Positions 1,293-64,000 of a DNA stretch of 64,000 nt are shown one piece after another. This DNA comes from a virus (lineage: Duplodnaviria; Heunggongvirae; Uroviricota; Caudoviricetes): IMG/VR virus record IMGVR_UViG_3300042922_001018; one strand, 5' to 3'. Under the pieces are notes generated by a model, which did no database searches, had not been told where the DNA came from, and was given only the letters and a program-made list of their open reading frames with translations. Each line of letters opens with the position of its first letter. The stretch's first letter is position 1. A program made the position numbers and the translations under genes.

Positions 1293-1822
1293 CCTTCGTC
1301 GCGACGGAGCGTGTGAACCCCACTGGGTCCACCGGCCGTGAAGGGTTTGACCCTTCACAACATCCACGGTCATCCTCCGGCCGGTTCACTGAGAAGACTG
1401 GCTCCTTGCCGGAGGTGGAACTCGGCTATCGGTGGAAGGAAATCTGGGAGTTCGATGACGGCTGGACGATGGCTGTCGAGCAGGCGAACAGTTACTACCC
1501 CGAGTTCAAGCGCGGGTGGCTCCGATTGCCAGACGGCACCCCTATCGGCATGATTCACTGGTCCACGAAAGACGCAGAGCCGTGCATCTGCGACATCGAA
1601 GTGCGCGACGAGTATCGCGGGCAGGGCTTGGCGAAGCGGCTCATTCATTCGGTCGAAGACCAGATTGGTGGGCGACTACACACGACAGGTAGCTTCACAC
1701 CGGAAGGCCGCGCCGCGCTGGCAGCCGCCACACCACAGGCCTCAGGGTACCCGGCGAGGCAGCATGATTTCAGGTCGATGACGTTCATCCATGACTGGGA
1801 TGCGCTCCAGACGAACAGCTAA
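1289..1822 (+). CDS. Tagged-family protein with GNAT acetyltransferase cargo
   Basis: GTG overlaps the previous stop (GTGA); FDPSQHPRSSSGRFTEKTGSLPEVEL; acetyl-CoA motif IEVRDEYRGQGLAKRL. Confidence 0.8.
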   Translation: MTFVATERVNPTGSTGREGFDPSQHPRSSSGRFTEKTGSLPEVELGYRWKEIWEFDDGWTMAVEQANSYYPEFKRGWLRLPDGTPIGMIHWSTKDAEPCICDIEVRDEYRGQGLAKRLIHSVEDQIGGRLHTTGSFTPEGRAALAAATPQASGYPARQHDFRSMTFIHDWDALQTNS

Positions 1823-2233: not shown

Positions 2234-3034
2234 ATGAGCTTCAACGAGTCTGAAATCAACCGCGCCACTGACGGCAAGTTCTCCGAGAAGGAGGGCACCC
2301 CGCCTGAGGACGGCTTCGCGAAAGAGCTGGCTGACACTCTCTGGTCCATCCGTGAGCGTGACGCCCGAGAAGGCGTCTGCGGCGTGGACTACGACCACAC
2401 CGAGACCACCACGTATGAGGACGACGAACTCGTTCAGTGGAAGTGCGAAGAGTGCGGTGCGGAGGGCGAAGTTGACCTCACCGAAGAGCCGGGCGACCTT
2501 CTGTCGGGCAAGACGATGGATGACCTGATGGGCCGCACCGCCGACGAGCCGGGCGCTCTGAACGGTTTCCGTCTGGACGACCTCATTATCTACGAAGACG
2601 GCGAAGACGGCGACGATGAGGACGACGACTTCGACATCACCCGCAAGTTCTCGTACCAGCGTTCCTACCCAGGTATGAGCGGCATCCCCGCAACTTCCAC
2701 CAAGCACTGCGCTGAGTGCGGGGACGAGATGCGGGTGAACGCCGAAGGAGTCTCGAACCACATCGCCGCCGACGGCGGCATCGACTACGACAAGGACGCT
2801 CAGCACGCAGCCATTGACGACGCCGCGTACGGCGACGCCGATGAGAGCAATGTGCTCTTCGTTACGGATGACGGGTTCGAGGTTCAGCGTGCCACCGACG
2901 AAGGCTCGTACGCGGTGTACGCGGCTGACGGCACGTTCCTCACGAACGTCACCAGCGCATCGGAGGACCACCTCAGCATCGAGGATGAAGTTCGAGAGCG
3001 TCTGGCAGAGCTGAAGGCCGCTAGCGGACAGTAA
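2234..3034 (+). CDS. Tagged-family protein, very acidic, CxxC motifs
   Basis: MSFNESEINRATDGKFSEKEGTPPE; SD aaggag; CEEC and CAEC; D/E runs. Confidence 0.85.
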   Translation: MSFNESEINRATDGKFSEKEGTPPEDGFAKELADTLWSIRERDAREGVCGVDYDHTETTTYEDDELVQWKCEECGAEGEVDLTEEPGDLLSGKTMDDLMGRTADEPGALNGFRLDDLIIYEDGEDGDDEDDDFDITRKFSYQRSYPGMSGIPATSTKHCAECGDEMRVNAEGVSNHIAADGGIDYDKDAQHAAIDDAAYGDADESNVLFVTDDGFEVQRATDEGSYAVYAADGTFLTNVTSASEDHLSIEDEVRERLAELKAASGQ

Positions 3035-10087: not shown

Positions 10088-11800
10088 ATGACGAACCCCG
10101 CACCAGCCACCGGACTCCAGCGCCTCAAAGTGACCGCGCCGAATGGCATCAGCCTGGGCAACAAGTCCCAGATTGACAAGCTCATCGGAGTCGTGGAGAA
10201 GACGCATGGAACGGGCTGGCGCCTCGCATCGGTAGACGAGGAGAACCGCCAGCTCCACCTTACGCGTGTCTCCGAAGTGGTCAACCTGAAGAAGTCCGAG
10301 ACTCGCAAGGACGCCTTCGATGTGTCCCTGCCCCGTGAGTACAAGGCATCCGATGCCGAACGTGCCGCGGCCGAGCTGGAATCGAATCCCGACTACGCAG
10401 GGTATGTCATGACGGACTTCAACCCATTCCTTCACGTGGCTACTCTCACCCGTCTCTCGAAGGAAGAAATCGTCGCGCGCGGCTACCTTGCGCAGACGCT
10501 CGGCGTCAAGCCGTGGGACATCCAGGTGCAGTCCACCGCAGTAGGTGGATACGCGGTCAAGCTGCCTCGCCAGTACGTCCCGGCGAAGCATGACGACAAG
10601 CTCACTGAGGTCGTCGAGACAGCCGTCGGTGCGCCCGGCTGGTACATCCAGTTCAACCCGAAGGAACGCACCGCGGAAATCATCCCCGGCGACCTTCCGA
10701 CGTTCCCGGCCATGATTCCCTTCCCGCTCGCGAAGGCTCTGAAGTCTGGGGACAACGTATTGCAGTTCGGCGAGCGCCTCGGCCCGAACTCGAACTCGCC
10801 CGGTGGCCCCGCCATCATCGACTTCGACAGCGCGGCCCACAGTCTCCTCTCCGGTACATCCGGCTCGGGTAAGACGGTGACCATCAACGGCATGATTACG
10901 TGGCAGCTCCTCACCGGCCACGAACTCGTTGTCATCGACTTGCCGCACAAGGCGGTGGACTTCACGTGGTGCCGCGAGTTCGTACGCGACGGCGGCTGGG
11001 GCTGTGACTCGCTGGAAGCCAGCGTGGCAGCTCTGGAAATGGTGTACCGCGAGGGCATGGAGCGCGCGAAGATTCTGAAGGAACACGATGTCACGAAGGT
11101 GGATGAGCTGCCGAAGCACCTTCGGATGAAGCCCATCTTCGTCGTCGTGGACGAGCTGAGCGGTCTGCTCATCCTTGAAGAGGTGCCGAAGGGTCTCGCG
11201 AAGGACAACCCGATGGTGCTGGAAGCGAACCGTATCAACCTGCTGAAGCAGACGCTCCTGAACCGCATCAAGAAGATTGCGGCCGAGCTGCGATTCGTGA
11301 AGATTCGCCTCCTGCTCTCATCCCAGGTCTCCTCGACCGATACGGGCGTCCCCACATCCCTGCGCATGAACCTGGCGAACAAGATGCTTCAGGGCACGAA
11401 CCCGACGGACAACAACCGTCGCCTCGCGCTCTCTGACGCTCTCTCCGTACCGAAGGTGCCGACCCACGTCCGTGAAGACCCGAAGGCCGGTAAGGGTGTC
11501 GGTGTGGCCGAGCTGGAGGGTCAGACGCCTGCGGTGTACAAGGGCTACTACGCTCCTGTCTCCGAGTACAAGAAGGCTATCGAAGCGCGCGGCTGCAAGA
11601 AGACGATGCGCCCTGCTCCGACTCCGGAAGAGATTGCTCGCTTCACGCCGAGCATCGACGAGGAAGACGCGGCGAAGGGCTTCGGACGCCAGAAGCGCAC
11701 GCTAGAGCCGTGGGAGATGGACGCGGACGGCAGGCCGTTGTCCGGCTTCGAGCGCGCGAACGCAGCGAAGCACGCCGCGACGGTCGGCGCCCGCGGCTGA
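10088..11800 (+). CDS. FtsK/SpoIIIE-domain ATPase
   Basis: Walker A GTSGSGKT, Walker B VVVDE, REGMERAKIL helix, SSQ motif. Confidence 0.85.
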   Translation: MTNPAPATGLQRLKVTAPNGISLGNKSQIDKLIGVVEKTHGTGWRLASVDEENRQLHLTRVSEVVNLKKSETRKDAFDVSLPREYKASDAERAAAELESNPDYAGYVMTDFNPFLHVATLTRLSKEEIVARGYLAQTLGVKPWDIQVQSTAVGGYAVKLPRQYVPAKHDDKLTEVVETAVGAPGWYIQFNPKERTAEIIPGDLPTFPAMIPFPLAKALKSGDNVLQFGERLGPNSNSPGGPAIIDFDSAAHSLLSGTSGSGKTVTINGMITWQLLTGHELVVIDLPHKAVDFTWCREFVRDGGWGCDSLEASVAALEMVYREGMERAKILKEHDVTKVDELPKHLRMKPIFVVVDELSGLLILEEVPKGLAKDNPMVLEANRINLLKQTLLNRIKKIAAELRFVKIRLLLSSQVSSTDTGVPTSLRMNLANKMLQGTNPTDNNRRLALSDALSVPKVPTHVREDPKAGKGVGVAELEGQTPAVYKGYYAPVSEYKKAIEARGCKKTMRPAPTPEEIARFTPSIDEEDAAKGFGRQKRTLEPWEMDADGRPLSGFERANAAKHAATVGARG

Positions 11801-17740: not shown

Positions 17741-18076
17741 ATGCCGAACGATGTCATGACGCTGGTCTACCGCTTGTACGCGGCCGACGGCGCCCTGCTG
17801 TATGTCGGCATCACGGAAGAGCTGGACAAGCGCTTCCTGCGCCATTCTGCGCGCCTCTGGTGGCCGGAGGTAGCGTCGGTGCTCCTGGAGGCGTACGAGA
17901 CGCGTAGAGACGCCCTGAGGGTCGAGTCGTGGGCGATTTACACCGAAGGCCCGGTGCACAACCGACTCCGGCCGGATGCTGATGAAGATGAACTGCCGCA
18001 GCCTTTGAGCAGTGTCATCTCCGGCATCGAAGCTTTCACGCCGCGTCCGCGCCCGAGATTGCGAGGCCGGAGATGA
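17741..18076 (+). CDS. GIY-YIG nuclease family protein
   Basis: LVYRLY...LYVGIT...R...E...P.HN. Confidence 0.8.
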   Translation: MPNDVMTLVYRLYAADGALLYVGITEELDKRFLRHSARLWWPEVASVLLEAYETRRDALRVESWAIYTEGPVHNRLRPDADEDELPQPLSSVISGIEAFTPRPRPRLRGRR

Positions 18077-18948
18077 GCGTCCAGTACACCGAGGCCGACT
18101 ACCACGTTGGCCATCCGGTACTGAAGCGCCAGCTCGCGCGCTGGCAGGTCAAGCCGTACCCGAACGACAGTGACCCTCGCCCGCTGCCTACACATGAGGC
18201 GATGCAAGACCACTTCGAGACGCCCGAAGAACTCGTGACCTACATCGGGATGATACTGGCGGATGTCCCGCACAACGACATCCTGGATGATTTCATGCGC
18301 GGCGAAGCTCGGCCTTACTACACTCGCGGCGAGTACATCGTAGACGCGATGCACCTCGTGACGTTGCTCTCAGCTCAGTTTGAGGAGCGGCCGGTGGAGA
18401 GCGACGAATGGAAGACGCTTCTTGCCAGCGCGTTGCGCGCAGTTCGCCGCTTCGGCCCGGCGCCGTCGAACAAGCAGTTGAGTCAGACCATCAAGAGCCT
18501 ACGCCGTTACCCGGTGGTGGACACGGGAGCGTTACTCGGCCGTCATACTCACCACGAAACGGGAAGTCCGACTCGACGAGAGTCGTACCGTGCCAAGGCT
18601 CTCATCGAGTCGGGATATGCGCTGCAAACGGGCGTAGCCTTCGACTACCTGGACCGGCTGGCGGGCGCTTCACTCCCGCTATTCGGCAACAGTCTGCGTT
18701 TTGTGATTCATGCGGCGGAATGGGAGGATGCAGGCGTGGACCCCGAGTACGCGGGTTCGCTGGCTCGACCGTTGGAAGTAGCGGATGGCCTAGGACCGCT
18801 GACTGAAGGCGTCATCGTCCTGCATCAAGGTGGCGTGCCCGCCGAGTATGCGCGCACGTGCGCGCTGCATCAGATGTCAGCAGCGAGCATCGTCGCAGCC
18901 TGGAAGAACAACCTGGCGCCGGAGTACGCGGTCAGCTTCCTGTCCTGA
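18073..18948 (+). CDS. GxPxEY-repeat family protein
   Basis: GVDPEY, GVPAEY, NLAPEY. Confidence 0.75.
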   Translation: MSVQYTEADYHVGHPVLKRQLARWQVKPYPNDSDPRPLPTHEAMQDHFETPEELVTYIGMILADVPHNDILDDFMRGEARPYYTRGEYIVDAMHLVTLLSAQFEERPVESDEWKTLLASALRAVRRFGPAPSNKQLSQTIKSLRRYPVVDTGALLGRHTHHETGSPTRRESYRAKALIESGYALQTGVAFDYLDRLAGASLPLFGNSLRFVIHAAEWEDAGVDPEYAGSLARPLEVADGLGPLTEGVIVLHQGGVPAEYARTCALHQMSAASIVAAWKNNLAPEYAVSFLS

Positions 18949-19880: not shown

Positions 19881-20360
19881 ATGGAGAAGGACGCACGTAT
19901 CGCACACGTCTGGGATGACATGGACCATCCTGCCGAAGCGTGGGCACTCGTCGCCGCGGCCGATAAGCGTTTCGCTTACAGCCTCGGTATGGCGGAAGCG
20001 GTCTCGCTTTTCGAAGCCATCGACACCGCGCTGGCCGCAGCGGTTCCTCAGAGCTATCTCGCCCTCTTGCTGGAGACGACGGACGACTGGAACGGAGCGG
20101 GCCTGATTGCTGAAGTGGCTGCCTCCGCGTATTCCTACAAGATGGACCCCGAGTACGTGCAAGCCGTCTATCTACTGGAGTATCGTTTCGACGACTGGAA
20201 GACGCTGAGCGAGCGCCTTGTAGAACTCTACCTCGGTGGTGTGCCCGCTGAGTACGCGAAGCAGACCGCGTCCGGGAGTCTCTACGTGGCTGACATCACT
20301 GCGGCGTGGCAAGCCGGTATCGCGTCAGAATACGTGGCTCCAATGGTAGGCCAGGAATGA
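19881..20360 (+). CDS. GxPxEY-repeat family protein
   Basis: MDPEY, GVPAEY, GIASEY. Confidence 0.75.
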   Translation: MEKDARIAHVWDDMDHPAEAWALVAAADKRFAYSLGMAEAVSLFEAIDTALAAAVPQSYLALLLETTDDWNGAGLIAEVAASAYSYKMDPEYVQAVYLLEYRFDDWKTLSERLVELYLGGVPAEYAKQTASGSLYVADITAAWQAGIASEYVAPMVGQE

Positions 20361-20387: not shown

Positions 20388-20876
20388 GTGACTGACGACC
20401 GGTTCGGTAAGCTCGAAAGAGAGCTTGTGTTCCCCGCGCTCACGATGAAGATGTACTTCGAGTTCGAAGAACGCCAGGGACGCGAGCTGGGTCCGGCAAT
20501 CGGCGCCCAGCTCATCGAAGCTATCGACTACGCGCTTGTCCACTCGAAGGCCGCGACAAGCTACCTGGAGCAACTCCTCGTCTGCTCAACTGGCGACTGG
20601 GGAACCTCCATGCTCGCTATGGGGACAGCACGCACAGCGTACCGTCATCGGATGGACCCCGAATACGTCATCGACATCATCCGATGCCCATTCGTGTCAA
20701 GCGGGCGGGACGAAGACGAACGGATAGAGAACCGTCTGCTCGCCCTGCATCATGCGGGAGTACCGAAAGAGTACGCCCTGTCGCTGCGTGTTGCGAGCCT
20801 GAGCGTAGAAGAAGTCGTCTCCGCCTGGCAGTCCGGCATCGCCGCTGAGTACGCAGTCGTCTCGATGGGCCGATGA
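20388..20876 (+). CDS. GxPxEY-repeat family protein
   Basis: MDPEY, GVPKEY, GIAAEY; paralog of upstream gene. Confidence 0.75.
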   Translation: MTDDRFGKLERELVFPALTMKMYFEFEERQGRELGPAIGAQLIEAIDYALVHSKAATSYLEQLLVCSTGDWGTSMLAMGTARTAYRHRMDPEYVIDIIRCPFVSSGRDEDERIENRLLALHHAGVPKEYALSLRVASLSVEEVVSAWQSGIAAEYAVVSMGR

Positions 20877-20877
20877 C

Positions 20878-21282
20878 ATGACCTCGTATCAAGAACGCAT
20901 CCGGTCTGAGTTCCCCGGCTTGTACTCCAGCTCGCTGGCGCGTGTCATCCAGGCCGAAACCGTCCCCGAAGACTACCTCCGCGTCTTGCTTCTCGACGCG
21001 GACGAGTTCTTCGACACGATGGTCATTGCTCTCGTAGCGCCGCAGTGCGCGGCGGCGGGAGTCCCAGCCGAGTATCTCCGTGACACCTGGCGGCTGCCTT
21101 TCTCCGGCGGTCAGGACGACGGCATGCCGGAACGACTCATCGAGCTCTATGCCGCCGGAGTACCCAGAGAATACGCGAGCCAGCTATCGCACCCGAGACG
21201 AGACGTAGGCGACATCATCTCTGCGTGGTCTGCGGGACTGGCGCCGGAGTACGCAGAAGAACTCTGGCGGGCAGTCGGTTAA
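20878..21282 (+). CDS. GxPxEY-repeat family protein
   Basis: VPEDY, GVPAEY, GVPREY, GLAPEY. Confidence 0.75.
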   Translation: MTSYQERIRSEFPGLYSSSLARVIQAETVPEDYLRVLLLDADEFFDTMVIALVAPQCAAAGVPAEYLRDTWRLPFSGGQDDGMPERLIELYAAGVPREYASQLSHPRRDVGDIISAWSAGLAPEYAEELWRAVG

Positions 21283-21752
21283 GCCGCGGCTGGGTCGGCG
21301 TACTTCGAGCGGTCGAGAGTACGGTGCTTGTCGCTCCGCCGGTTCACCCAGTTGGTGACGATAGTCCATGGCTGCTTCTTGTGCTCGCCGGGTCGCATGA
21401 CCATCACGATGTCGTCCTGGTTGCTTGACGGGTGCGGGACGCGGACAAGCAGCTTCGAGACTCGCCCTCCCGAAACAGACACCTCGATGACCTGGCATTC
21501 GCGCAGGTCTACCTTGTCCAGCTTCGGGATGTAGTTGTACCGGTCGTTCTCACGCTCTCGGTCGGCGTGGCCGGTGTATTCGCAGAAGATTTCACGCTGA
21601 GGCACAGTCACATTCGAGGGGATGCCGATGTCACGGTGATACGTGATTTCGTCGGCGGGCTTCTGGAACAGAGCGACCTCCGGCTGTGAGCCGACCTTGT
21701 TGTCGAAACGTCCGTCAGTCTGACGCCGGACATTGGCCTCGTTGAATGTCAT
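21279..21752 (-). CDS. Tagged-family protein; cargo possibly DUF4258/RelE-like RNase fold
   Basis: MTFNEANVRRQTDGRFDNKVGSQPEVAL; YTGHA..R and IVTNWVN...D.H.TL motifs. Confidence 0.75.
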   Translation of the reverse strand: MTFNEANVRRQTDGRFDNKVGSQPEVALFQKPADEITYHRDIGIPSNVTVPQREIFCEYTGHADRERENDRYNYIPKLDKVDLRECQVIEVSVSGGRVSKLLVRVPHPSSNQDDIVMVMRPGEHKKQPWTIVTNWVNRRSDKHRTLDRSKYADPAAA

Positions 21753-21768: not shown

Positions 21769-21806
21769 ACTTGCCAGGGGAAGCGTGTCCGTGTACTATC
21801 GGTGGC

Positions 21807-22268
21807 ATGTCTTCAGCCATGCGGTATCCCGGCACCCGAGGAACGGTCGAACAGTTCTTCACGCTCTGGTACAGCGTCCCGCAGCACTTCGCGGGGTTCG
21901 AGTCGCCCGAAGACATCATCACGCACCTGGCTAGTCTCGGCTTCGACATGCGACTCTACCGTCGTCGGCCATCCAAGAAGCTGGCACTGCACGAGAAGCA
22001 CGCGAACGGCATGCAGCTCAGCGTTCACGAGGGCGCGCGCCTCCTCGGCGTCTTCAGCAACGATGTGGAGTACACCCGGAAGTTCCTTACGGCGATGACC
22101 GACGACATGGTACTGATGGAGGCTAACGCCAACCTCCGACAGTTGCACCATGTCAGAGTCGAGCCGGGCTACGCTGCACGCCTCGGAAGCGCGGGCGTAG
22201 CCGCGCGCACCATCACTGCCATGTGGGCTGAGGGTGTGGCCGAAGAGTACGTTCTGGCAATCGCTTAG
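21807..22268 (+). CDS. GxPxEY-tail family protein
   Basis: TACTAT-N7-ATG; VEPGY...MWAEGVAEEYVLAIA. Confidence 0.7.
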   Translation: MSSAMRYPGTRGTVEQFFTLWYSVPQHFAGFESPEDIITHLASLGFDMRLYRRRPSKKLALHEKHANGMQLSVHEGARLLGVFSNDVEYTRKFLTAMTDDMVLMEANANLRQLHHVRVEPGYAARLGSAGVAARTITAMWAEGVAEEYVLAIA

Positions 22269-43477: not shown

Positions 43478-44122
43478 GTGAGCACAGGTATTCTCTTCCC
43501 GAACGTGAGGCCCAAGGCTTCCGCGCTAGCGCTCATTCAGCGGGACCGCCACCCCCGCGTTCTACGGTACGCCGAGGCGGCAATGCGCAGCAAGCTCGGC
43601 GTATCCGAGCATCGAGAGAACCTCTGGATTGAGGGTTACCAGCGATTCGGTGACGAGTTCGAAGCAACTTTCGCGGCGCTGAAAGGGAACTTCAACACCA
43701 TCAAGCGCCCGGCGCGAATGCACAATGAGCTGGAGGGGAAGCTCGCGGACCCGTGGATGCTGGTCGGTCGGCGTCTGGAAGAGCTACCGCAGAGCGTTCA
43801 AGACGCGTGGCATCTCTTCCGTAGTCGCGAGGATGTCGTCCGCGTCTGGATAAACGACCCGAAGCCTCCTGTTGACCTCGCCGACATCTTCAGTTGGGCG
43901 GTAGGCGACGGATACTTCGACTGGGAGAACCTGGGGAAGACCTGGACCGACCGCATCACCACCAAGTTCCGCTGGACGCTCCCCGAGCTTCGTGAAGTGA
44001 TGGCTTACGGCCTCACGCATGAAGAAGTGGACGAGTACCGTCGCCGTGGGCTGAAGACGGCGAAGCAGTTCGCCGCGCATTTCCGGGATGGAATCCCCAT
44101 CGAGTACATCGTGGTCATCTGA
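43478..44122 (+). CDS. GxPxEY-tail family, RHP/GYxRFGD subfamily
   Basis: RHP...GYQRFGDEFE...DPW; ends DGIPIEYIVVI. Confidence 0.75.
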   Translation: MSTGILFPNVRPKASALALIQRDRHPRVLRYAEAAMRSKLGVSEHRENLWIEGYQRFGDEFEATFAALKGNFNTIKRPARMHNELEGKLADPWMLVGRRLEELPQSVQDAWHLFRSREDVVRVWINDPKPPVDLADIFSWAVGDGYFDWENLGKTWTDRITTKFRWTLPELREVMAYGLTHEEVDEYRRRGLKTAKQFAAHFRDGIPIEYIVVI

Positions 44123-44832
44123 TGGCAGAGCGGCTCATCACGTCGAAGAACGCGTTCTTCAACGTCCGACCGGGCACCACTGGCGCGAGGCGCCAGCAGC
44201 CTGCAACCATTGACGAAGCGCGACACCCGGCGCTCGCCCGGTACGCGGTCATGTCGGGAACGTACTCCAACAGCCCGGCGCTGCCAGGATTGTGGCAAAA
44301 CGGCTACAACCGGTTCGGCGACGAGTTCGAAGCGCTTGTCTCCGACATCTCCTCCCGGAAGCCGACCGAGTACGCCAAGCGTCTCCTACAGCTCGACGAC
44401 CTCTGGAAGCTCGTGGGCCTCCGGTGGGAAGAGCTACGCCCAGAAGAACAGCTCGCGTGGGAGCATGCTCGTTCCGACAGCCGCAGCCGCGCGCTTCCTC
44501 ATATCGCCCGCCGAACGACGCCGGAGCGGTATCCCGAGCTGCTCGCATGGTCTGGCGTCAACCGCATCGAGTTCTTCCACGGCCGTGCCTGGGGAGAAGC
44601 CATCTATGGCAGCGCCATCAGCAAGGTCGCCCAGGGACAGCAGGGCCACCGCTTCTACTACAAGAGCCTCATGACAGAGCCGCGCGTTGAAGACCTCCTG
44701 CTTCTTGCTGAAGCGGGCGTAACACCCGCTGAGCTGTACATGGTGGTTTCGCAATACGGCCTCACTGTGGAGCAGGCGCGTATTCACTTCATCGAGGGCA
44801 TCGCGCCGGAGTATCTCGTCGCCATGGAGTGA
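44122..44832 (+). CDS. GxPxEY-tail family, RHP/GYxRFGD subfamily
   Basis: RHP...GYNRFGDEFE; ends EGIAPEYLVAME. Confidence 0.75.
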   Translation: MAERLITSKNAFFNVRPGTTGARRQQPATIDEARHPALARYAVMSGTYSNSPALPGLWQNGYNRFGDEFEALVSDISSRKPTEYAKRLLQLDDLWKLVGLRWEELRPEEQLAWEHARSDSRSRALPHIARRTTPERYPELLAWSGVNRIEFFHGRAWGEAIYGSAISKVAQGQQGHRFYYKSLMTEPRVEDLLLLAEAGVTPAELYMVVSQYGLTVEQARIHFIEGIAPEYLVAME

Positions 44833-48056: not shown

Positions 48057-48761
48057 GTGAACGCCTACGCTGATGGCATGCGTCAGGCGCTCACCTACCA
48101 GCTTCTTCAGTACCGGCCGTCCTCCGGTGACCTGGCGAGCATCGACGCAGCGCGCCACCCCGGCGTCGCCCAGTGGGTTCGAGACAGCTACGAAGACCGG
48201 ACTACCGCCCAGAGCATCCGTTGGCTTCGCGGCTACCGACGCTTCGGTGACGTGTTCGAGCGTGCTACCCAGCTCGACCCGCACGACCCGGCTGTGAAGC
48301 TCGCCGACCCCTGGTATCTCGCGGGACTGCGCGAAGAGGATTTCACCCCCGCGACGCGTTCATTCCTGCACTCGATGTACGAGCGGGACATGGGTTCCCA
48401 AGGCCTCTCCCTCTTCATCTCTGCATTCGCGAAGCTCGGGAACCTGCCGGATAACTTCCAGGAACAGATGCGGTGGGCCGGTGGACGGTACATCGTCCCC
48501 AAGTCCTTCTGGGGTAGCTGGGTCAATGGACTGCTCGGCGAGTATGCGAGCACGTGGACTCCGGAGAACATCGACGAACTGATGACGGCTGGTGTTCGTC
48601 GCCGTGAGATGGATAAGGCGCTCGCGGCGGTCTACGGTGTGTCGGTGGATGTGACGCGGAACATCCATGAACAGGTTCTCCCCGATGTTCCGTATTCGGT
48701 CGTCAAGGCAGTGGTGCTAGATGAAGTGCCTGTAGAGTACGTCCGTGCCACGTTGACGTGA
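48057..48761 (+). CDS. GxPxEY-tail family, RHP/GYxRFGD subfamily
   Basis: IDAARHP...GYRRFGDVFE...LADPW; ends EVPVEYVRATLT. Confidence 0.75.
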   Translation: MNAYADGMRQALTYQLLQYRPSSGDLASIDAARHPGVAQWVRDSYEDRTTAQSIRWLRGYRRFGDVFERATQLDPHDPAVKLADPWYLAGLREEDFTPATRSFLHSMYERDMGSQGLSLFISAFAKLGNLPDNFQEQMRWAGGRYIVPKSFWGSWVNGLLGEYASTWTPENIDELMTAGVRRREMDKALAAVYGVSVDVTRNIHEQVLPDVPYSVVKAVVLDEVPVEYVRATLT

Positions 48762-53494: not shown

Positions 53495-53992
53495 TTACCA
53501 GCGGGTGACTGTTGCTGTGTCCCGCTCTGAAGCTGTGATGTGGCCCATCTTGAAGCTAAGGTCAGCAGTGTCTCGAATCGTGGAAGCCATTTCGCTCGCG
53601 CTGTGGCCGAACGACTCGATACGGTTTTCACGAACTTCGTCTGTCTGCATACCTGCGTACGCCGCAGCGAGTGCTTCCTCCGGCTTGCGGCCTCTCCATG
53701 ACCACTTCTTCGGCTCTTCGCCGTAGCTCACCTCGAAGTTGCGGAACCCAGACCGTCGAGCGATAAGCGTCAAGCCGTCCGGCCCATCGACGCTCCACGT
53801 GCGCTTACCGTTTTCATCACGGCCCTGCGAGGGGTTCAGTTCCGGAGTCGGCTCCACGATACGAGCACCGAGGCCCGCGATTTCCGGGTGCTCGGCATCG
53901 AACTCCGCAAGTGAAATCTCCGGACGCGAGCCACGCTTTTCAGAGAAACGACCGATAGTGTCGCGGTCTACCGCGAGTTCGTCGAAAGACAT
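53495..53992 (-). CDS. Tagged-family protein
   Basis: MSFDELAVDRDTIGRFSEKRGSRPEISL. Confidence 0.85.
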   Translation of the reverse strand: MSFDELAVDRDTIGRFSEKRGSRPEISLAEFDAEHPEIAGLGARIVEPTPELNPSQGRDENGKRTWSVDGPDGLTLIARRSGFRNFEVSYGEEPKKWSWRGRKPEEALAAAYAGMQTDEVRENRIESFGHSASEMASTIRDTADLSFKMGHITASERDTATVTRW

Positions 53993-53999
53993 GCCCAGT

Positions 54000-54008
54000 T
54001 GTAGGCGG
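54000..54008 (-). promoter_or_regulatory. CCGCCTACA box
   Basis: Minus strand ccgcctaca-actgggc-ATG(53992). Confidence 0.75.
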
Positions 54009-54057
54009 TCTGTGCGCGCCCTCTAACAGCTTCCCGCCGAAGATGTAGTCTCCGGGT

Positions 54058-55823: not shown

Positions 55824-58800
55824 ATGGCCTTCGTCCACGGACACGTACACTCCGAGTTTTCAGCGCTCGATGGGATGGTGCGGCTCAACGCTGCCTTCCA
55901 GAAGGCGAAGGAGGCAGGGCAGACCGCTCTTGCCATCACCGACCACGGTACGCTCGGTGGCATCTGGAAGGCCCGGAAGTTCGCGAAGGAAACCGGCGTC
56001 AAGCTGATTCCCGGCGTCGAGGTCTACGTCGCCATCGGCTCCCGCTTCGAGAAGAACAGCATCGAAGTCCCCATCGAGTCCCCGCTCTCCTCTGACGATG
56101 CCTGCTCGCACGGTGACGACGAGCACAGCCACGGCATCGACCTGTTCGCCGACGAGGGTCTCGCTGACGAGCACACCGCCGAGACCGACGCTCGCGAAGC
56201 CCGCGGCATTCTCGCTGACCCCGACAGCACGGAGGCGCAGAAAGCGGCTGCCCGAGCTACCCTCGGAAACCCGACCGACGAAGCGCCCGTGGACCCGGAC
56301 GCCGGAGATGCCAAGGACGGCATCCGCAAGAAGCACTACTGGCACCTCACCCTCCTCGCACGGAACGCTGCCGGATGGCAGAACCTCATCGCCATTCAGA
56401 ACGAGGCGTTCGCAACCGGCATCTACTACAAGCCGCGCATCGACTTCGACCTCCTGAAGAAGCACTCCGAAGGCATCATCGCTCTCACCGGCTGCCTCGG
56501 TGGCGTCGTCGCTGAGCCGGTCGGTCGTGCCTACGACGCCCGCAACCGCTCCGAAGAGGCCCGCGGACTCCTGCGCACCATCGCTGAACGGGTCGCCCAG
56601 ACCAACGGCATCGACATGGACACGCTCGGAACGGCCCTCGTCTCCGTGGACCGCCGATTCGAGAGCGTGACCGCCATGCTCGAAGAGGCACGTGACCCCG
56701 AGGGCGAGCCAGTCTCCGACGCCGAGCGCCTCATCACTCAGGAGATGCTCGACTTCCACCGCATCCGCAAGACTGCCGACGAGCGCGTCGCCGAAGGCAC
56801 CGGACAGGCTCGCGGCAACATCGAGACCCTCATCGAAGCGCTCGGCCACGAGAACGTGTACATCGAGGTCATGGAGCACGGCATCCCGTCCGAGCAGGCC
56901 ATCATCGGCGACATTGCCGCGCTCGCCGACGAGTACAAGCTCCCGCTGTTCGCCTCGAATGACGCCCACTATCTCGAAGAGGCTGACCACGAAGCCCACG
57001 AGGCGTGGCTCGCCATGCAGTCGAAGAGCACCCTCGCCGACCCGAAGCGTTACCGTTTCACCGGCCACGGATTCTTCCTCCGCACTGAAGAGCAGATGCG
57101 CGCCCTCCGTGAGGACACATGGTGGCAGGACGCTGTCTCCAACACCCAGACCGTTGCAGACCGGGTCGAGGAAGACATCATCCCGGACCCGGCACCCCGC
57201 ATGCCGCGCTTCCAGTTGCCGGAAGGCGAGACTCGCACCAGCCGTCAGTTCATGATTGACCTCATCTTCGCGGGTGCCGCTGAGCGGTACGGCGCGAACT
57301 GGCGTGAAGAGCGCCCCGACGTGAAGGAACGCCTCAACTACGAGTTCAAGGTCATCGACTCGATGGGCTTCCTCGACTACTTCGGCATCGTGTGGGACGT
57401 GATTTCGTGGGCACGGTCCACACGACCCGTCTACCCCGGTGGCCCGGACAAGAAGCCCATCCTCGTCGGTCCCGGCCGTGGCTCCGCCGCAGGTTCGCTC
57501 GTGTCCTACTGCCTCCGTATCGTCAACGTGGACCCGCTCGAATACAACCTCCTCTTCGAGCGTTTCCTAGAGCCGGGCCGACCGGACTGGCCCGACATCG
57601 ACATGGACTACGAGAAGTCCCGCCTGGACGAAGTCCTCGCGTACATGATGCACAAGTGGGGCGTCCGCTCCGTGGCTCGTATCGGCTCGTTCGCCATTTC
57701 GAAGTCCCGTGCCAGCATCAAGAACGCCGCGCGCGTGCTCGGTGTCAAGGGCGGCGCCGGAGACAAGCTCTCGAAGCTCGTACCTGTCGCATTCGGTCAG
57801 CCGTGGCCCATCGAGAAGATGTTCGACGAGACGAAGGCCGAAGGAAACGACTTCCGCAAGCAGCTCGCCCGCTTCGGCGACGACGGCGAGCGCATCATCG
57901 ACCTCGCGAGCAAGTTCGAAGGTCTCGTCACTGGTGTCGGCATCCACGCTTGTGGTGTCGTCGTCGCGGACATCGACCTCGATGAGCTGGTGCCCCTGCG
58001 CCAGGACACCTCGAAGATTCAGGGTGAGCAGCTCTCCGCTGTCACCGCGTGGGACTCGAAGGACATCGAAGCCGCGGGCCTCCTGAAGCTCGACTTCCTG
58101 TCGCTGCGTACGCTCGACATCATCTCGCTGGCGACCGAGCACATCCAGGAGACGACCGGCGAGGTCATCGACCCCGACGACCTCCCGAACCCGAACGACC
58201 TGACCAACCCGCGCGTCGCAGCGGCATACCGTCTCCTCGTCGAGGGCAAGACCTCCGGCATCTTCCAGTCGGAGAGTGCTGGTATGACGAAGGTCTACCA
58301 GAACATCCAGCCGTCTGGCCTGGAAGACCTCAGCGCCGTGGTGGCGCTGTTCCGGCCCGGCCCCCTCGCAGCGCAGATGGACGTTCGTTACGCCGACCGT
58401 AAGCACGGCCGCGAGTCCGTGACCTACGACTACATCACGCTGGACAAGGCGGAGCAGGAAGTCATCGACGGCGTTCTCGGCGTCACCTACGGTACGACCG
58501 TGTACCAGGAGCAAATCATGCAGCTCTCGCGCGTCGTCGCGGGCTTCGATGCGAAGCTCTCGAACAAGATGCGCAAGGCCATGGGCAAGAAGCTCAAAGA
58601 GGTCATGGATGAGGTCGAAGTCCTCTTCATCGAAGGTGCGCAGAAGAACGTCTCCGTCGCCGGGGAAGCGAAGCTTGCGTTCAAGGAAGCGACCGCTCGT
58701 CGCCTCTGGGACTTGCTGAAGGGTAACGCCGACTACCTGTTCAACAAGTCACACTCCGTCGCGTACGCGCAGGTCGCGTTCATCACCGCGTACCTGAAGG

Positions 58801-60266
58801 CAAACTGGCCCGCCGAGTTCGGCGCCGCCGTTCTCGCGACCACGGAGAAGAAGGAAAGCCGCGTCGCCACCATCCGGTCGCTGACCGCGGAAGGCATCGA
58901 AGTTCTCGCGCCCTCCGTCAACAAGAGCCGCCCGATGACGTTCCCCGAAGGCTCCAGCGCTGTTCGCCTGGGCCTCACGGAAATCAAGGGTCTCGGCAGC
59001 ATCGGTGAGGCCATCTACAAGCACCGCGTCTGGACCGACTCGGAGGGCGCCCAGAAGTCGGACCCGTACCACGACCTCCGCAACGTCGCCTTCCGCGTGA
59101 AGGATGAAGCGGGCAAGTCCATCCAGGTGAACCACCTCGAAGCCCTCGTCGAGTCCGGCGCTTGCGATGAGTTCGGTCCGCGCATGGGTCAGTTCATGGT
59201 CTGCCGCACCGTTGTGCGGACGGACATGACACCGCTCGACATGGAGTGGGGGCCGGTAGAGCGTGCCTCTCGCCAGCGTGCGCGTCTGTACACCTCGCTC
59301 GGCGAGCACCCGCTGACGACCGTGCAGCCCTACATCAAGTCCTGGCGTACGCCGGACAGCGTCGTCTACGGGAACACTGTCTACGGCCAGTCTCCTCTGC
59401 CCATCGGCCGCGTTCTCCAGAGCGCGAAGGACGGCGACAACGCTCTCACCCTCGGCCTCCTCGCCGCATGGTCCGAGCGCACCTACGCGGGTGGCCGCAT
59501 GGCGAACATCACGCTGGAAGGCTCCGGCCACTCCATCGACTGCGTCATCTGGGACGGCTCGCTCACCGAAATCAAGGCCGTCTACGACGGTGAGGCGCCG
59601 ATGCCTGGTTCCATCATCGCGATTTCGGGACGCGTCGTTCTGAACCTCGTAGAGGTCGAAGACGACGAAGGCAACGTCTCCGACATCTCGAAGAAGGAGA
59701 TGATGGTCACGAAGGCTTTCCCCGTCCCCATCCCCGACGCGCCTGTCGGAGAGCTGAAGCCCTGCGCTATCAGCGTCCCCGTCCCGATGCCGCTACCTGA
59801 GCCGGTCAAGAAGACTCGCGCGAAGAAGGAGACGAAGACTGAAGACACTCAGCCGACGCTCGCCGTCGGCGTCATCGACGCTCCGGACATCTTCGACGAC
59901 CTGTTCTTCGCGGACCCGTCGCTGGCTGAAGACTATGCCCCCGCCCCCACCGAGTTCACGCCCGATGGTACGCCGGTCAGCCAGCCTGCGGAGCCAGTGA
60001 CCACCGACCTCGTGGTCATGAACGTCCCGGTTCTTGTGACGAGTCGCGTGCCGAAGGGCATGATGAAGCGCCATCTCCAGAACTGCGGATGGGGCGATGT
60101 CGCGGAACAGGTTCTCGCGACGTACAAGACGAGCGGTCACGGCACGGAAGACAAGTTCTACCCGGTGTCTTCCGGCGACATCCGCAAGGGCGTCTACGTC
60201 TCAACGCGGCTGTTCGGTGGCGGTCTCACGTCGATGGAAGAGGTTCCCGACCTCCTCTGGAGTTGA
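55824..60266 (+). CDS. dnaE: DNA polymerase III alpha subunit
   Basis: PHP HVHSEFSALDG, TDHG, NDAHY; GRGSAAGS; PDIDMD; HACG; KLDFL; RPGP; YQEQ; FNKSH; OB fold. Confidence 0.96.
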   Translation: MAFVHGHVHSEFSALDGMVRLNAAFQKAKEAGQTALAITDHGTLGGIWKARKFAKETGVKLIPGVEVYVAIGSRFEKNSIEVPIESPLSSDDACSHGDDEHSHGIDLFADEGLADEHTAETDAREARGILADPDSTEAQKAAARATLGNPTDEAPVDPDAGDAKDGIRKKHYWHLTLLARNAAGWQNLIAIQNEAFATGIYYKPRIDFDLLKKHSEGIIALTGCLGGVVAEPVGRAYDARNRSEEARGLLRTIAERVAQTNGIDMDTLGTALVSVDRRFESVTAMLEEARDPEGEPVSDAERLITQEMLDFHRIRKTADERVAEGTGQARGNIETLIEALGHENVYIEVMEHGIPSEQAIIGDIAALADEYKLPLFASNDAHYLEEADHEAHEAWLAMQSKSTLADPKRYRFTGHGFFLRTEEQMRALREDTWWQDAVSNTQTVADRVEEDIIPDPAPRMPRFQLPEGETRTSRQFMIDLIFAGAAERYGANWREERPDVKERLNYEFKVIDSMGFLDYFGIVWDVISWARSTRPVYPGGPDKKPILVGPGRGSAAGSLVSYCLRIVNVDPLEYNLLFERFLEPGRPDWPDIDMDYEKSRLDEVLAYMMHKWGVRSVARIGSFAISKSRASIKNAARVLGVKGGAGDKLSKLVPVAFGQPWPIEKMFDETKAEGNDFRKQLARFGDDGERIIDLASKFEGLVTGVGIHACGVVVADIDLDELVPLRQDTSKIQGEQLSAVTAWDSKDIEAAGLLKLDFLSLRTLDIISLATEHIQETTGEVIDPDDLPNPNDLTNPRVAAAYRLLVEGKTSGIFQSESAGMTKVYQNIQPSGLEDLSAVVALFRPGPLAAQMDVRYADRKHGRESVTYDYITLDKAEQEVIDGVLGVTYGTTVYQEQIMQLSRVVAGFDAKLSNKMRKAMGKKLKEVMDEVEVLFIEGAQKNVSVAGEAKLAFKEATARRLWDLLKGNADYLFNKSHSVAYAQVAFITAYLKANWPAEFGAAVLATTEKKESRVATIRSLTAEGIEVLAPSVNKSRPMTFPEGSSAVRLGLTEIKGLGSIGEAIYKHRVWTDSEGAQKSDPYHDLRNVAFRVKDEAGKSIQVNHLEALVESGACDEFGPRMGQFMVCRTVVRTDMTPLDMEWGPVERASRQRARLYTSLGEHPLTTVQPYIKSWRTPDSVVYGNTVYGQSPLPIGRVLQSAKDGDNALTLGLLAAWSERTYAGGRMANITLEGSGHSIDCVIWDGSLTEIKAVYDGEAPMPGSIIAISGRVVLNLVEVEDDEGNVSDISKKEMMVTKAFPVPIPDAPVGELKPCAISVPVPMPLPEPVKKTRAKKETKTEDTQPTLAVGVIDAPDIFDDLFFADPSLAEDYAPAPTEFTPDGTPVSQPAEPVTTDLVVMNVPVLVTSRVPKGMMKRHLQNCGWGDVAEQVLATYKTSGHGTEDKFYPVSSGDIRKGVYVSTRLFGGGLTSMEEVPDLLWS

Positions 60267-60271
60267 CGACT

Positions 60272-60280
60272 CCGCCTACA
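60272..60280 (+). promoter_or_regulatory. CCGCCTACA box (leadered variant)
   Basis: Box, then SD aaggag, then ATG 60303. Confidence 0.65.
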
Positions 60281-60302
60281 GCGAGAGGACCGAAGGAGAC
60301 CA

Positions 60303-61127
60303 ATGTCCACTCACGAGTGGGAGGGCGGGACTATCCAGCTCCCGTCCGACCAGGCAACCGCTATTCGGCATGCCATCGTCGCGCGACACAATGCCATCAG
60401 CGAGCGAGCTTTCGCTGCCGCTAAAGAGGTATGGGACAAGGCTACGCCTGCCCAGCGGAAGGACTCGGACTACCTCGGCGACAAGCTCTCGGACAAGCTC
60501 ATCTCCAAGTCGTACGGCTGGTACTCCCGGCCGCGTGATGACTACGGCGCTGAGGCAGCCGCTCTGGACCGCGCGCAGAACCTTCTGGAGCTGCGCAGGT
60601 ACGGTAAAGACCCACGTGCCCCACAGAAGAAGAACCTGCCCCTCGTCGGTAAGACGGAGACGCAGTTCGAGAGCGACAACGCAACCGTCGTCTTCGACAC
60701 CAAGAAGAACACGCTCCGCTGGAGCGCAGACGGTAACCACGGAGTCGAGAACGCTCACGGCGAGTGGCTCTGGGAAGCGGTGGATGCCGAACTCGACAAG
60801 GTGAAGTGGACACGTGGCAGTGGCGGCGTTATCGGAGGCGGCAACGAGTACCGCCCCAGCGAGGTTGCGAGCAAGGGCTACGGCCCGACGGGACTGAAGG
60901 ACGCACCCCAGGTCACACAGCCGTTCATGAAGGCTGACGGCACCCGAGTAACCCAGCGCGAGATTGACGAAGCTCGGGCGAAGCAGTTGCGCGGCCAGGC
61001 CCGCGAGAAGAACGCTGAAGCTCGCGCTCTGAAAGCACGCGCCGCAGCCCTCGGCTCGCAGGACCGGCGAACCAACGGTCAGTTCGACTACCGTCGCGGC
61101 TCATACCCAGAGGTGCGACTGCGGTAA
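60303..61127 (+). CDS. Protein carrying the family tag at its C-terminus
   Basis: Ends QDRRTNGQFDYRRGSYPEVRLR. Confidence 0.8.
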   Translation: MSTHEWEGGTIQLPSDQATAIRHAIVARHNAISERAFAAAKEVWDKATPAQRKDSDYLGDKLSDKLISKSYGWYSRPRDDYGAEAAALDRAQNLLELRRYGKDPRAPQKKNLPLVGKTETQFESDNATVVFDTKKNTLRWSADGNHGVENAHGEWLWEAVDAELDKVKWTRGSGGVIGGGNEYRPSEVASKGYGPTGLKDAPQVTQPFMKADGTRVTQREIDEARAKQLRGQAREKNAEARALKARAAALGSQDRRTNGQFDYRRGSYPEVRLR

Positions 61128-61152: not shown

Positions 61153-61566
61153 ATGGCTCACATAACCTCCGGCGTAGACCAGTGGGGTGCATATATCTGC
61201 ATCGACGGATACGACCCGTCGCCCGGCCAGCGAGGCTGGTACAAGAGCATGCGTTCGCCGGTAGGCCTCGGCCGCAGCAATCTCGTGGACGCAGAGGACT
61301 GGCGGAGGCGTACAGTCCGAGAGATTCGCCATCTGATGCGGAAGCTGAACCTTCCCGATGGTACGAACTTTCACCAAATCATCCGCGCCCACCAAGGCCT
61401 GCCTCTGACATGCGAACCCGAGCGCGGCCCCAGCAGGGAAGCAGAAGACTGCCGTCTCATCGCTGAGTTCGAGTGGGAAGCGCGACAGAACTGGGTGGCC
61501 TGTCCCGCAAGTCTCGACGAGCTGCTGGAACGTCATTTCCGGAACAGTCGCGAGCTTACAAGCTGA
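61153..61566 (+). CDS. Hypothetical protein
   Basis: TAGACT-N6-ATG. Confidence 0.55.
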   Translation: MAHITSGVDQWGAYICIDGYDPSPGQRGWYKSMRSPVGLGRSNLVDAEDWRRRTVREIRHLMRKLNLPDGTNFHQIIRAHQGLPLTCEPERGPSREAEDCRLIAEFEWEARQNWVACPASLDELLERHFRNSRELTS

Positions 61567-61673: not shown

Positions 61674-62765
61674 ATGACTTTCAGTGAGACCAACGTCCGA
61701 CGCGACACGCTCGGCAAGTTCAGCGACAAGCTGGGCAGCGCTCCCGACGCCAGCGTGCTCGCGACTCTCAACGACCCCGCCGAGGAGACCCGCAACGAGC
61801 GTCTCGTCCGCGAGTTCAACCAGCGCCGCTCGCTGCTCCAGAAGGCAGGCTACGCCAAGGCAACCGCACAGGTCGCCGTCGCCGATGTCCGCGAAACTGC
61901 TCGCGACGACGACAAGCGCGCCGACTGGTGGGAGCAGAACTTCGTCACTGGCGAGTTCGCACCGGAGAAGGCGGGCAGCTTCGCCCTCATGCCGGACAAC
62001 TACACCCCTGGCATGACCACCGGCCGCTCCGCCGAAGGCAACCGTCGCACGCACCGCATGCTCTACGAAGGCGCAGGCGTCTCCGTGCGTATGCCGTCGG
62101 CTACCGCCATCAAGCGCTTCTCGGCCGACAACAAGAACCGCTCGTTCGATGTTCCTCTGTCCATCGAGATTGACGGCCAGCAGGTCGCCGGTCACGTCCG
62201 CGTCACCAAGAACGGCCCGAACCAGTGGGGCGTCTCCTCGCTCGGCTTCCCCGGCGACAAGGCCGACCGTGTTTCGGAGGCGGTATCCGCCGTACTCGAA
62301 TCGCGCCGTCCGTCCACCGCGCTCCGCGAGGTCAACAGCCTCATCGAGCGTCGCCGCGAGCGTCTCGCGATGGCGGGCGCCAAGGTCGAGCCTGTCGCAT
62401 CCTCGTTCATCGACGGCATCGGCTACAACGAAGCGGGCAACGAGCTGTACGTCACCATGGGCAACGAGAAGACCGGCGAAGTCCGTGCGTACGCTTACCG
62501 TGTCCCGCGCGACGTGTACCACGCCATCCGCAACTCCGACTCCCCCGGCAAGGCGTACAACGCCCTCGTCAAGAAGGGCGGCGCCGAGCAGGTCGCCGGT
62601 GGCAAGAACAACCCCGCTCAGGTCGGCTTCGACGAGTCCACTGGTCGCTTCTTCAACAAGGCGCGTGGGTTCCGGTTCAGCCGTCACACTGAGGCGGACA
62701 AGAGCGCGAAGCGGTCGCGCACCATCGCTCTGAAGCGCGTCCTCGGAGTACCGGTCAAGGACTAA
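61674..62765 (+). CDS. Tagged-family protein with KTSC domain
   Basis: MTFSETNVRRDTLGKFSDKLGSAPD; SSFIDGIGYN...LYV...Y.Y.VP..VY.....SPGKAYN. Confidence 0.85.
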   Translation: MTFSETNVRRDTLGKFSDKLGSAPDASVLATLNDPAEETRNERLVREFNQRRSLLQKAGYAKATAQVAVADVRETARDDDKRADWWEQNFVTGEFAPEKAGSFALMPDNYTPGMTTGRSAEGNRRTHRMLYEGAGVSVRMPSATAIKRFSADNKNRSFDVPLSIEIDGQQVAGHVRVTKNGPNQWGVSSLGFPGDKADRVSEAVSAVLESRRPSTALREVNSLIERRRERLAMAGAKVEPVASSFIDGIGYNEAGNELYVTMGNEKTGEVRAYAYRVPRDVYHAIRNSDSPGKAYNALVKKGGAEQVAGGKNNPAQVGFDESTGRFFNKARGFRFSRHTEADKSAKRSRTIALKRVLGVPVKD

Positions 62766-63192: not shown

Positions 63193-63816
63193 ATGTCTGA
63201 ACTGACGATTCTCTGGCCCGAAGGCTCCCCCATCCCCGAGGTCTCCCAAATCTGGGTGGACTACGAGACGGACAGCAACGACTTCAAGACCGGCCACATC
63301 CTCGAAGCCGGAATCATCTACACGGACCGTGACCTCAACGTCATCGCGGAACGAGAGGCAACCCTCCCGCTTTCCGCCGTCTCGAAGGCGCGCATCGCTG
63401 ATGTCGAGTTCGTCTTCAACATGCACACCGAGTCGGGTCTTCTCGCTCGACTTCACGACCCAGCCGTCCCGAAGGTGAGCGTATCCGAGCTGGAGCAGCT
63501 CATCCTCGGCGACCTGAAGCGCTTCGGTCACACCAAGAAGCTCCGCTTCTGCGGCTCCGGGTCCACCGGGTTCGACTACTACTTCACGCAGCGTCTCATG
63601 CCCACTCTCGGCGCGTTCAGCCCCGTCTTCTACCAGGAAGACGTACGCTACGTCCGCAACGCGTACCGCCAGGCCACAGGTGGCAAGGAAGTTCCCGGTG
63701 AGTACCACCAGGCGAAGACACACCGCGCAATCGAGGACATCCGCCTACATCTGGCAGAGTACAAGGCCTACGGTGAAGTGATGTTGGCGGGAGCCAAAGC
63801 ACTGAACCTCGTCTGA
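63193..63816 (+). CDS. orn: Oligoribonuclease-like DEDDh exonuclease
   Basis: WVDYET, ILE.G...TD.DL, MHTESGL, FD..F, HRAIEDI. Confidence 0.85.
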   Translation: MSELTILWPEGSPIPEVSQIWVDYETDSNDFKTGHILEAGIIYTDRDLNVIAEREATLPLSAVSKARIADVEFVFNMHTESGLLARLHDPAVPKVSVSELEQLILGDLKRFGHTKKLRFCGSGSTGFDYYFTQRLMPTLGAFSPVFYQEDVRYVRNAYRQATGGKEVPGEYHQAKTHRAIEDIRLHLAEYKAYGEVMLAGAKALNLV

Positions 63817-63827
63817 GGAGCAACATC

Positions 63828-64000
63828 ATGAGTAGTCTCACAACGGAGTGGAACACTACCTTCGAGAACTGGCAGCCGGTCCGCCGTGCTGAGTTCCCGT
63901 GCCCCTGGTGTACGCGTGGCCTTGCACAGGTCGAGAACCGATGGAAGCACGAAACCGGGCAGTCATGCCTGTGGAGCGAGTTCCCGCTGGAAGTGTCCCA
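63828..64000 (+). CDS. Hypothetical protein, 3' truncated
   Basis: SD gaggag, ATG 63828, frame appears open to the window end. Confidence 0.45.
   Translation, partial: MSSLTTEWNTTFENWQPVRRAEFPCPWCTRGLAQVENRWKHETGQSCLWSEFPLEVS

Follow-up and report, generated by a model that had tools for sequence, protein, structure and literature searches.

A probable C-terminal copy of a replicon-specific N-terminal peptide tag in an uncharacterised protein family of megaplasmids

The window analysed here, a stretch of 64,000 nucleotides from the IMG/VR virus record IMGVR_UViG_3300042922_001018 which belongs to a giant plasmid-like element of actinobacteria, contains 20 open reading frames (ORFs) that start with a shared peptide tag, MTFxE..hpRxxxG[KRT]FxEKxGxxPEVxL, and one ORF of 274 codons whose product shows a related sequence at its C-terminus. 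This C-terminal tail is very probably a true member of the tag system. Tail and N-terminal tags are homologous or equivalent, selection acts on them at the protein level, and the tag is used at either end of proteins. Given that the tail and the N-terminal tags change together between plasmids, the tag is most likely a protein-level label that can be read at either end. The features considered are the following:

1289-1822, plus strand: ORF with a GTG start and a displaced tag core (1367-1423), overlapping the stop codon of ORF 357-1292
55824-60266, plus strand: gene of a DnaE-like polymerase (1480 aa), directly upstream of the 274-residue ORF, in a conserved neighbourhood
60272-60280, plus strand: promoter-like box, a perfect CCGCCTACA, in the 36-nt spacer between the DnaE-like gene and the 274-residue ORF
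60293-60299, plus strand: Shine-Dalgarno-like AAGGAGA in the leader, missing from the tagged genes with a 7-nt spacing
60303-61127, plus strand: 274-residue ORF with an ATG start, the long, tailed form of an uncharacterised megaplasmid protein family
60321-60797, plus strand: folded body, residues 7-165, in the AF2 model
60810-61061, plus strand: extension specific to tailed family members, with a disordered stretch (residues 170-216) and a long helix (residues 218-253) in the AF2 model
61062-61124, plus strand: probable C-terminal tag copy, DRRTNGQFDYRRGSYPEVRLR, residues 254-274, predicted to be disordered
61674-61760, plus strand: nearest ordinary N-terminal tag, at the start of the KTSC-domain ORF 61674-62765, given for comparison

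The translated 274-residue protein starts with MSTHEWEGG and ends with ...QDRRTNGQFDYRRGSYPEVRLR before the stop codon. Its AF2 model shows a body block with pLDDT values mostly of 74-95, a dip near residues 71-77 and a first strand from residue 7; the tail, which follows the long helix, is Gly- and Pro-rich, with a pLDDT of about 32 and no secondary structure, and is not docked on the body of its own protein. No family of Pfam, NCBIfam or PHROG matched the 274-residue protein, the AF2 model had no structural match in the PDB at E<=0.001, and tblastn against phage records gave no match; a weak single PHROG match, phrog_34171, was found to the tail region of the homologue P0063. The gene order DnaE-like polymerase, 274-residue protein, small ORF and tagged KTSC protein is kept in relatives, and the orthologous loci of the DnaE-like gene show the Pfam domains PHP, DNA_pol3_alpha and related domains. 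In the close relative L001, the gene after the tailed gene (L001:10822-11259) overlaps it by ATGA, starts with an N-terminal tag (MSLQPRHQDGRFAEKTGSPAEVSL) and encodes a product that weakly matches Arr-ms, a family of rifampin ADP-ribosyltransferases; its place in the window is taken by a different, untagged gene of 137 residues (61153-61566).

As originally described, the 274-residue ORF shows no N-terminal tag, and its C-terminus (..DRRTNGQFDYRRGSYPEVRLR before the stop codon) fits the pattern RxxxGxFxxxxGxxPEVxL, which fits most, not all, of the N-terminal tags in the window. The tag anchor, R-x3-G-x-F, is present in the tail as R255..G259-Q-F261 and appears in a longer form, R..GG-x-F, in the H and R variants of the tag described below. 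R255 and G259 are invariant in eight closer family members, and G259 is invariant in 37 tailed members. The second half of the tail, F-DYRR-G-SY-P-E-V-R-L, shows a spacing equal to that of 19 of the 19 N-terminal tags compared, and the general form of this half across variants is F-x4-[G/Q/H/R]-x2-P/A-E-V/I-x-L. The MTFxE..hP head is missing from the window tail, which is preceded by ..AALGSQD.

Profile scores within the window separate the tail from the N-terminal tags. A HMMER profile of 20 tag cores, from which the scored sequence was excluded, gave the tail 4.0 bits (E of 2.5 over 1371 six-frame segments) in an alignment spanning model positions 2-20, while the true tags reached 33-44 bits. 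A score at background level had been named in the original prediction as evidence against it, and this result formally comes close to it. With a 21-position log-odds matrix built on 42 non-redundant N-terminal tags, the tail reached 16.2 bits, compared with 39-54 bits for true tags, and an iid p of 4e-7 per position; it was the best non-tag match in the six-frame window, followed by matches of 14.8 and 11.6 bits. A matrix of 15 positions gave 15.1 bits for the tail and 9.7 for the next best match (E of about 0.16). When the search was reversed, an HMM built on seven homologous tails placed two true N-terminal tags, those of ORF 21279-21752 (E of 0.004) and ORF 53498-54022, in register at the top of the 1370 other six-frame segments. 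A broad HMM of N-terminal tags listed no tails in W01 and W02 (E<=0.01) or in W04 (1e-4). As a profile test of membership, the window tail does not score like an N-terminal member, and the tails of the Pseudarthrobacter plasmid pACHL01 and of locus L044 come nearer to doing so. Judged from the window alone, the match is suggestive and short of decisive; the decisive support comes from other replicons. The alternative to be weighed at this point is chance or convergence, by which the tail would be a C-terminal motif of its own family, unrelated to the tag; it would account for the background-level HMMER score, the pattern was fitted after the sequence had been seen, and family members often have GGQF and end in RL.

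Two other C-terminal sequences were observed in the window. The N-tagged ORF 2234-3034 shows a tag-like stretch near its C-terminus (positions 2915-2977, ..AADGTF..SEDHLS; 14.8 bits) which has no R, second G or P and is probably due to chance. About ten untagged ORFs, among them 18073-18948, 19881-20360, 20388-20876, 20878-21282, 21771-22268, 43478-44122, 44122-44832 and 48057-48761, share another block, ..W..G[IL].[PAE]EY.., a few residues before their end; in Pfam, five of these ORFs gave no match, and the block looks like a separate paralogous C-terminal module.

Conservation of the tail in homologues, on which the original prediction depended, was confirmed. Six close homologues with 62-64% identity were found on large contigs from relatives, reaching 395 kb in length, and their tails are nearly invariant, QDRRxNGQFD[YF]RRGSxPEV[RF]LR, with R, G, F, G, S, P, E, V and L fixed, although the codons of the tail differ synonymously among them. 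The family was delimited by an exhaustive profile search, which gave 718 cluster representatives at E<=1e-3. Among the best 150 of these 718 representatives, 56 show G-x-[FY]-x11-12-[LIVF] within 5 residues of the stop codon, and none has an N-terminal tag. A search for homologues with the motif at either end had been suggested, and here only the C-terminal form was found. The median length in the best 150 is 284 aa for representatives with the tail motif and 228 aa for the rest, and homologues without a tail terminate after about 190-230 aa, close to ..GGGGNYVTxxFGP... One family member, P0047, ends in ..GRDRIGRFDVKRQSSPEVTLS and scores 29 bits on the matrix of window N-terminal tags. The N-terminus of the family is conserved from residue 2, with the consensus MSxxEWExGTIxLP from residue 1; together with the strand that starts at residue 7, this would be a simple reason for a tag placed behind the protein. 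C-terminal placement is confined to the family of the 274-residue protein, which is also the only tagged family found in plasmids free of tags.

The tail and the N-terminal tags were then compared in 10 replicons in which N-terminal tags could be read beside distant family members, with positions counted from the G of the anchor. The residue of the tail at position +7 is the majority residue of the N-terminal tags of its own replicon in 10 of the 10 replicons, which comprise one with G, three with Q, five with H and one with R. In the window, G is found at +7 in the tail and in 19 of the 19 N-terminal tags compared. In loci L008, L009 and L011 the tail has Q, as do nearly all N-terminal tags; L012, L014 (a plasmid of Arthrobacter sp. 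zg-Y1110), L015 (a plasmid of Pseudarthrobacter BIM B-2242), L045 and pACHL01 show H, and L044 shows R. The acidic residue also moves in concert in the tail and the tags, occupying +11 where the variant is G or Q and +9 where it is H or R. In a permutation of the 10 replicons, 1.5e-5 of random pairings reached the similarity that the tails show to the N-terminal tags of their own replicons; since there are only four variants, few independent events lie behind this co-variation.

The tail of L044, ..RVPRGVRTGGQFAGVSRGESGVRLR, is a complete copy of the tag. Its nucleotide identity with the 13 N-terminal tags ranges between 0.51 and 0.71, with a median of 0.64 among the N-terminal tags themselves. 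Recent DNA copying is thus unlikely as the source of the likeness between tail and tags, the identity being no higher than that of N-terminal tags with each other. Locus L044 also shows 13 consecutive tagged genes and a gene encoding an RbpA-like protein, and L044:13379-14425 encodes an ArdC-N protein of anti-restriction type with an N-terminal tag of the R variant. In L008 and its 48.6-kb parent contig (Q variant, 69% GC), the tagged genes adjoin a type I-E CRISPR-Cas set and genes for an NAD-dependent DNA ligase and an RNase H.

Presence and absence of the tail follow those of the N-terminal tags on complete plasmids that carry the family. The three plasmids with a tailed homologue, from Arthrobacter zg-Y1110, Pseudarthrobacter BIM B-2242 and P. 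chlorophenolicus A6 (pACHL01), all Micrococcaceae, have 43, 45 and 48 N-terminal tag matches, whereas no such match was found on the five complete plasmids with a tail-less homologue, which belong to Dietzia, Rhodococcus rhodochrous, Euzebya, Thioalkalivibrio and Alteromonas. The exact probability of this split of three and five among the eight plasmids is 1/56. The whole record of pACHL01 from Pseudarthrobacter chlorophenolicus A6 (NC_011879, 426,858 bp; loci L022-L043) was scanned with a 15-position matrix built from its own N-terminal tags, 50 of which were counted, all 50 at the N-terminus. Over 589,209 six-frame positions the tail scored 21.1 bits (E of 0.02), the next non-tag match 12.1 bits and the weakest true tags 24-32 bits, so that the tail is the best match outside the front of proteins in the entire plasmid. 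This clear separation from background, the agreement of variants in all ten replicons, the perfect presence and absence on eight plasmids, the whole-tag copy of L044 and the reciprocal HMM matches all argue against a family-specific motif arisen by chance or convergence, which we regard as very improbable. The best explanation overall is a diverged copy of the tag at the C-terminus, in a system that is read at either end, and we hold this explanation with considerable confidence.

The 274-residue ORF also shares its upstream box with the tagged genes. The perfect box reported upstream of this ORF was found at 60272-60280, and the window, with a GC content of 62%, contains 13 exact copies of CCGCCTACA against 0.33 expected. 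Eleven of the 13 are located exactly 7 nt (nnnnGGC) before the ATG of an ORF with an MTF.. or MSF.. tag. At the 274-residue ORF, the gap between box and ATG is 22 nt and includes AAGGAGA; this gene thus has the box in common with the tagged genes, without their apparently leaderless arrangement. The thirteenth copy (63741-63749) falls within ORF 63193-63816, at its 3' end and 78 nt ahead of the ATG of the next ORF at 63828, and may be a promoter embedded in a gene. The form of the box differs by replicon: CCGCCTACA in the window, CTGCCTACA in L001-L004 and CCGCACACA in pACHL01. Upstream of the homologues in L001-L004 it is kept as C[CT]GCCTACAG, and an equivalent purine-rich block precedes the homologous gene in L001-L004 and in pACHL01. 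In pACHL01, CCGCACACA occurs in 166 copies, most commonly spaced 8 nt from the first downstream ATG (74 cases), while at the tailed gene it is found 29 nt upstream with a purine-rich ribosome-binding site in between, the same layout as in the window. The box presumably acts as a promoter. It heads about 17% of the window genes (13 boxes for a rough count of about 75 genes), and the 166 boxes of pACHL01 compare with 541 annotated features; being so common, a position under the box is weak evidence when taken alone, and boxes outnumber tags, so untagged genes must also use it. In sum, the tail resembles the N-terminal tags of its replicon in the R..G-x-F anchor, the spacing of the second half up to L, disorder, the box and the replicon variant; it differs from them in its C-terminal position, in a free end at L instead of hPR, in the window in having no MTFxE..hP head, and in a leader on the mRNA, a far lower score and restriction to one protein family.

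Two of the readings set aside in the original prediction remain set aside here. The first is that the tag is a translation-start artefact. N-terminal tags always share a small piece of DNA with their promoter and start codon, and their conservation could follow from that DNA. The C-terminal copy is some 760 nt away from the start codon and persists although its codons change synonymously, so it is not a by-product of a piece of DNA carrying a promoter or a start codon, and a side effect of this kind is ruled out by the distance of the copy. The second is a classical cleaved signal peptide: the tail is C-terminal, hydrophilic and predicted to be disordered, and has no hydrophobic core. Sec and Tat signals are N-terminal with a hydrophobic core, and in the Tat case carry S/T-R-R-x-F-L-K, while the tail is charged and shows RR followed by TNGQF; the N-terminal tags are likewise hydrophilic. 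Other known linear motifs were also rejected. Motifs binding the beta-clamp are of the type QL[SD]LF with a Q-x-x-hydrophobic-F core. The tails of the window clade show GQFD[YF], but the N-terminal tags show G[KRT]F[AS]EK and the tails of other variants GQFxxR or GQFTY. The type VII secretion signal is YxxxD/E after a WXG helical hairpin, and the tail has neither YxxxD/E nor WXG.

The position of the tag within proteins is restricted. The motif had been called position-independent, and this holds in so far as either end is used; it is otherwise found at ends only, with one family alone carrying it at the C-terminus. In about 490 kb of tag-rich DNA (the window and pACHL01), every copy lies within about 10-30 residues of the N-terminus or no more than 5 from the C-terminus, and the tag is a terminal linear motif that acts at the protein level, at either end but at ends only. 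We infer that it is a binding peptide. The ORF at 1289-1822, described earlier as having its tag shifted inward by about 18 residues, shows MTFVATE followed by 17 residues and then HPRSSSGRFTEKTGSLPEVEL, which places the R of the core at residue 27 instead of about residue 10 and the core 17 residues further in. The same 17-residue insertion is found on the other bodies P0040 and P0044; it separates the HPR core from the MTFxExx head, has the conserved sequence RVNPxGxTGREGFDPSQ and looks like a partial duplication of the tag head. P0044 and P0038, judged by the first residues after the tag, appear to be one body with and without the insertion.

Among published systems checked, the nearest parallel is found in the encapsulation peptides of bacterial microcompartments, which are short targeting modules joined by a poorly conserved linker to the N- or C-terminus (Aussignargues et al. 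2015, PMC4594438), and which in one enzyme family occur at either end depending on the system (PMC4594438). Both are terminal modules on unrelated cargo, usable at either end. Encapsulation peptides are, however, amphipathic helices some 18 residues long, poorly conserved in sequence, that bind shell proteins, whereas the tag is Gly/Pro-rich, predicted to be disordered and strongly conserved in sequence, and does not form an amphipathic helix in these predictions. Among the window ORFs that were annotated, no shell protein genes were noticed. Polyvalent proteins of phages and conjugative elements (PMC5512222) offer a second likeness, as the first half of the tag is found before successive modules in the protein P0036, and effector-like bodies such as Fic, Arr-like and ArdC-N are common to both. 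The stretches in polyvalent proteins are internal and correspond to the first half only, while the tag is a full two-part motif at the free end of single-domain proteins.

The repeats in P0036, a polyvalent-type protein of 1395 aa (PF18760, PF14528) with hPRxxDGxF three times inside it, ahead of modules, raise the question of a protease recognition or processing site, by which the N-terminal tags would be clipped leaders and the tail clipped or a docking remnant. Autoproteolytic release of modules has been argued for polyvalent proteins (Iyer et al. 2017, PMC5512222). Cleavage at the extreme C-terminus, however, would free only a few residues, the tagged sets examined show no linked peptidase, and P0036 has no second half of the tag. 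A search of the literature for the motif, including PMC5512222, found no description of it. On balance a processing site seems quite unlikely.

A second possibility is that the tag is a signal for degradation or turnover, in which an unfoldase-protease would engage the disordered terminus and keep co-expressed early proteins short-lived. Degrons read by AAA+ proteases occur at both ends of proteins, and use at either terminus, disorder and confinement to about 30 residues from an end are all in line with such a role, as are the many tagged bodies that look like potentially harmful enzymes (Fic, HD phosphohydrolase, Arr-like). We nevertheless consider it unlikely, although somewhat less so than processing: tags differ between replicons of related hosts, which points to a reader matched to the replicon and not to conserved host proteases, no protease candidate was identified, and we know of no degron that the motif resembles.

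The third possibility concerns the 274-residue protein itself, which could be part of the machinery, for example an adaptor, with the tail as a built-in competitor or a tether to the reader. It is the only family with a C-terminal motif and the only tagged family also present in tag-free plasmids, it has a fixed place beside replication genes, and its tail in the window clade is more conserved than the paralogous N-terminal tags. Yet the tail is undocked in the AF2 model, the L044 tail falls among the ordinary tags of its replicon, and the conserved, apparently fold-embedded N-terminus is the simpler reason for tagging at the C-terminus; a place in the machinery is, like processing, improbable.

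With the tail taken as a diverged copy of the tag, the family would have gained a C-terminal extension of about 80 residues in replicons with the N-terminal tag system, composed of a disordered stretch, a long helix and a disordered tag within 5 residues of the stop codon. The tail keeps the N-to-C orientation of the tag, its R..G-x-F anchor, the half x4-[G/Q/H/R]-..-E/P-..-L and the exact spacing. Because orientation is kept while the free end is hPR in N-terminal tags and L in the tail, the peptide is probably bound in a groove of the reader, which probably needs no particular free terminus; given the replicon-specific variants, the reader is also probably encoded by the replicon. The tag would single out more than 40 co-expressed proteins for a single shared fate, and one guess at this fate among several is that they are cargo selected to accompany DNA into a new cell. 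A cargo address, a turnover signal, a processing site and a role of the 274-residue protein in the machinery are the candidates for purpose; the effector-like bodies of tagged proteins (Fic, an Arr-like protein and the ArdC-N protein in L044) fit a cargo address.

For such an address, the type VII and type IV secretion signals read by ATPases of FtsK/SpoIIIE type or by coupling ATPases are a natural comparison; these signals are C-terminal and consist of YxxxD/E after a helical hairpin or of basic tails. As in these systems, many unrelated substrates would be chosen through a terminal peptide that lacks structure, and a FtsK/SpoIIIE-like ATPase is encoded in the window at 10088-11800. The known signals differ in being C-terminal and of other patterns, while the tag copies described here are nearly all N-terminal. 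A complex prediction for this ATPase with residues 225-274 of the 274-residue protein, run with no controls, gave a score of 0.00, which speaks neither for nor against binding.

We tentatively propose, as one possible reading that we hold with less than even confidence, that giant actinobacterial plasmids carry a protein-addressing code: a two-part peptide with G, Q, H and R variants, co-evolving with a plasmid-encoded reader, would mark, on each plasmid, 40-50 co-transcribed proteins for a shared fate, for instance delivery into a recipient cell along with the DNA, and the family of the 274-residue protein would be a natural example of a tag moved between ends. The shared replicon-specific variants provide a handle for finding the reader by co-evolution, and the entire system, including the C-terminal case, is present on pACHL01 of a cultured strain and is therefore experimentally accessible. 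Should the reader turn out to select proteins for transfer, large plasmids would be choosing their protein cargo by a route not described so far.
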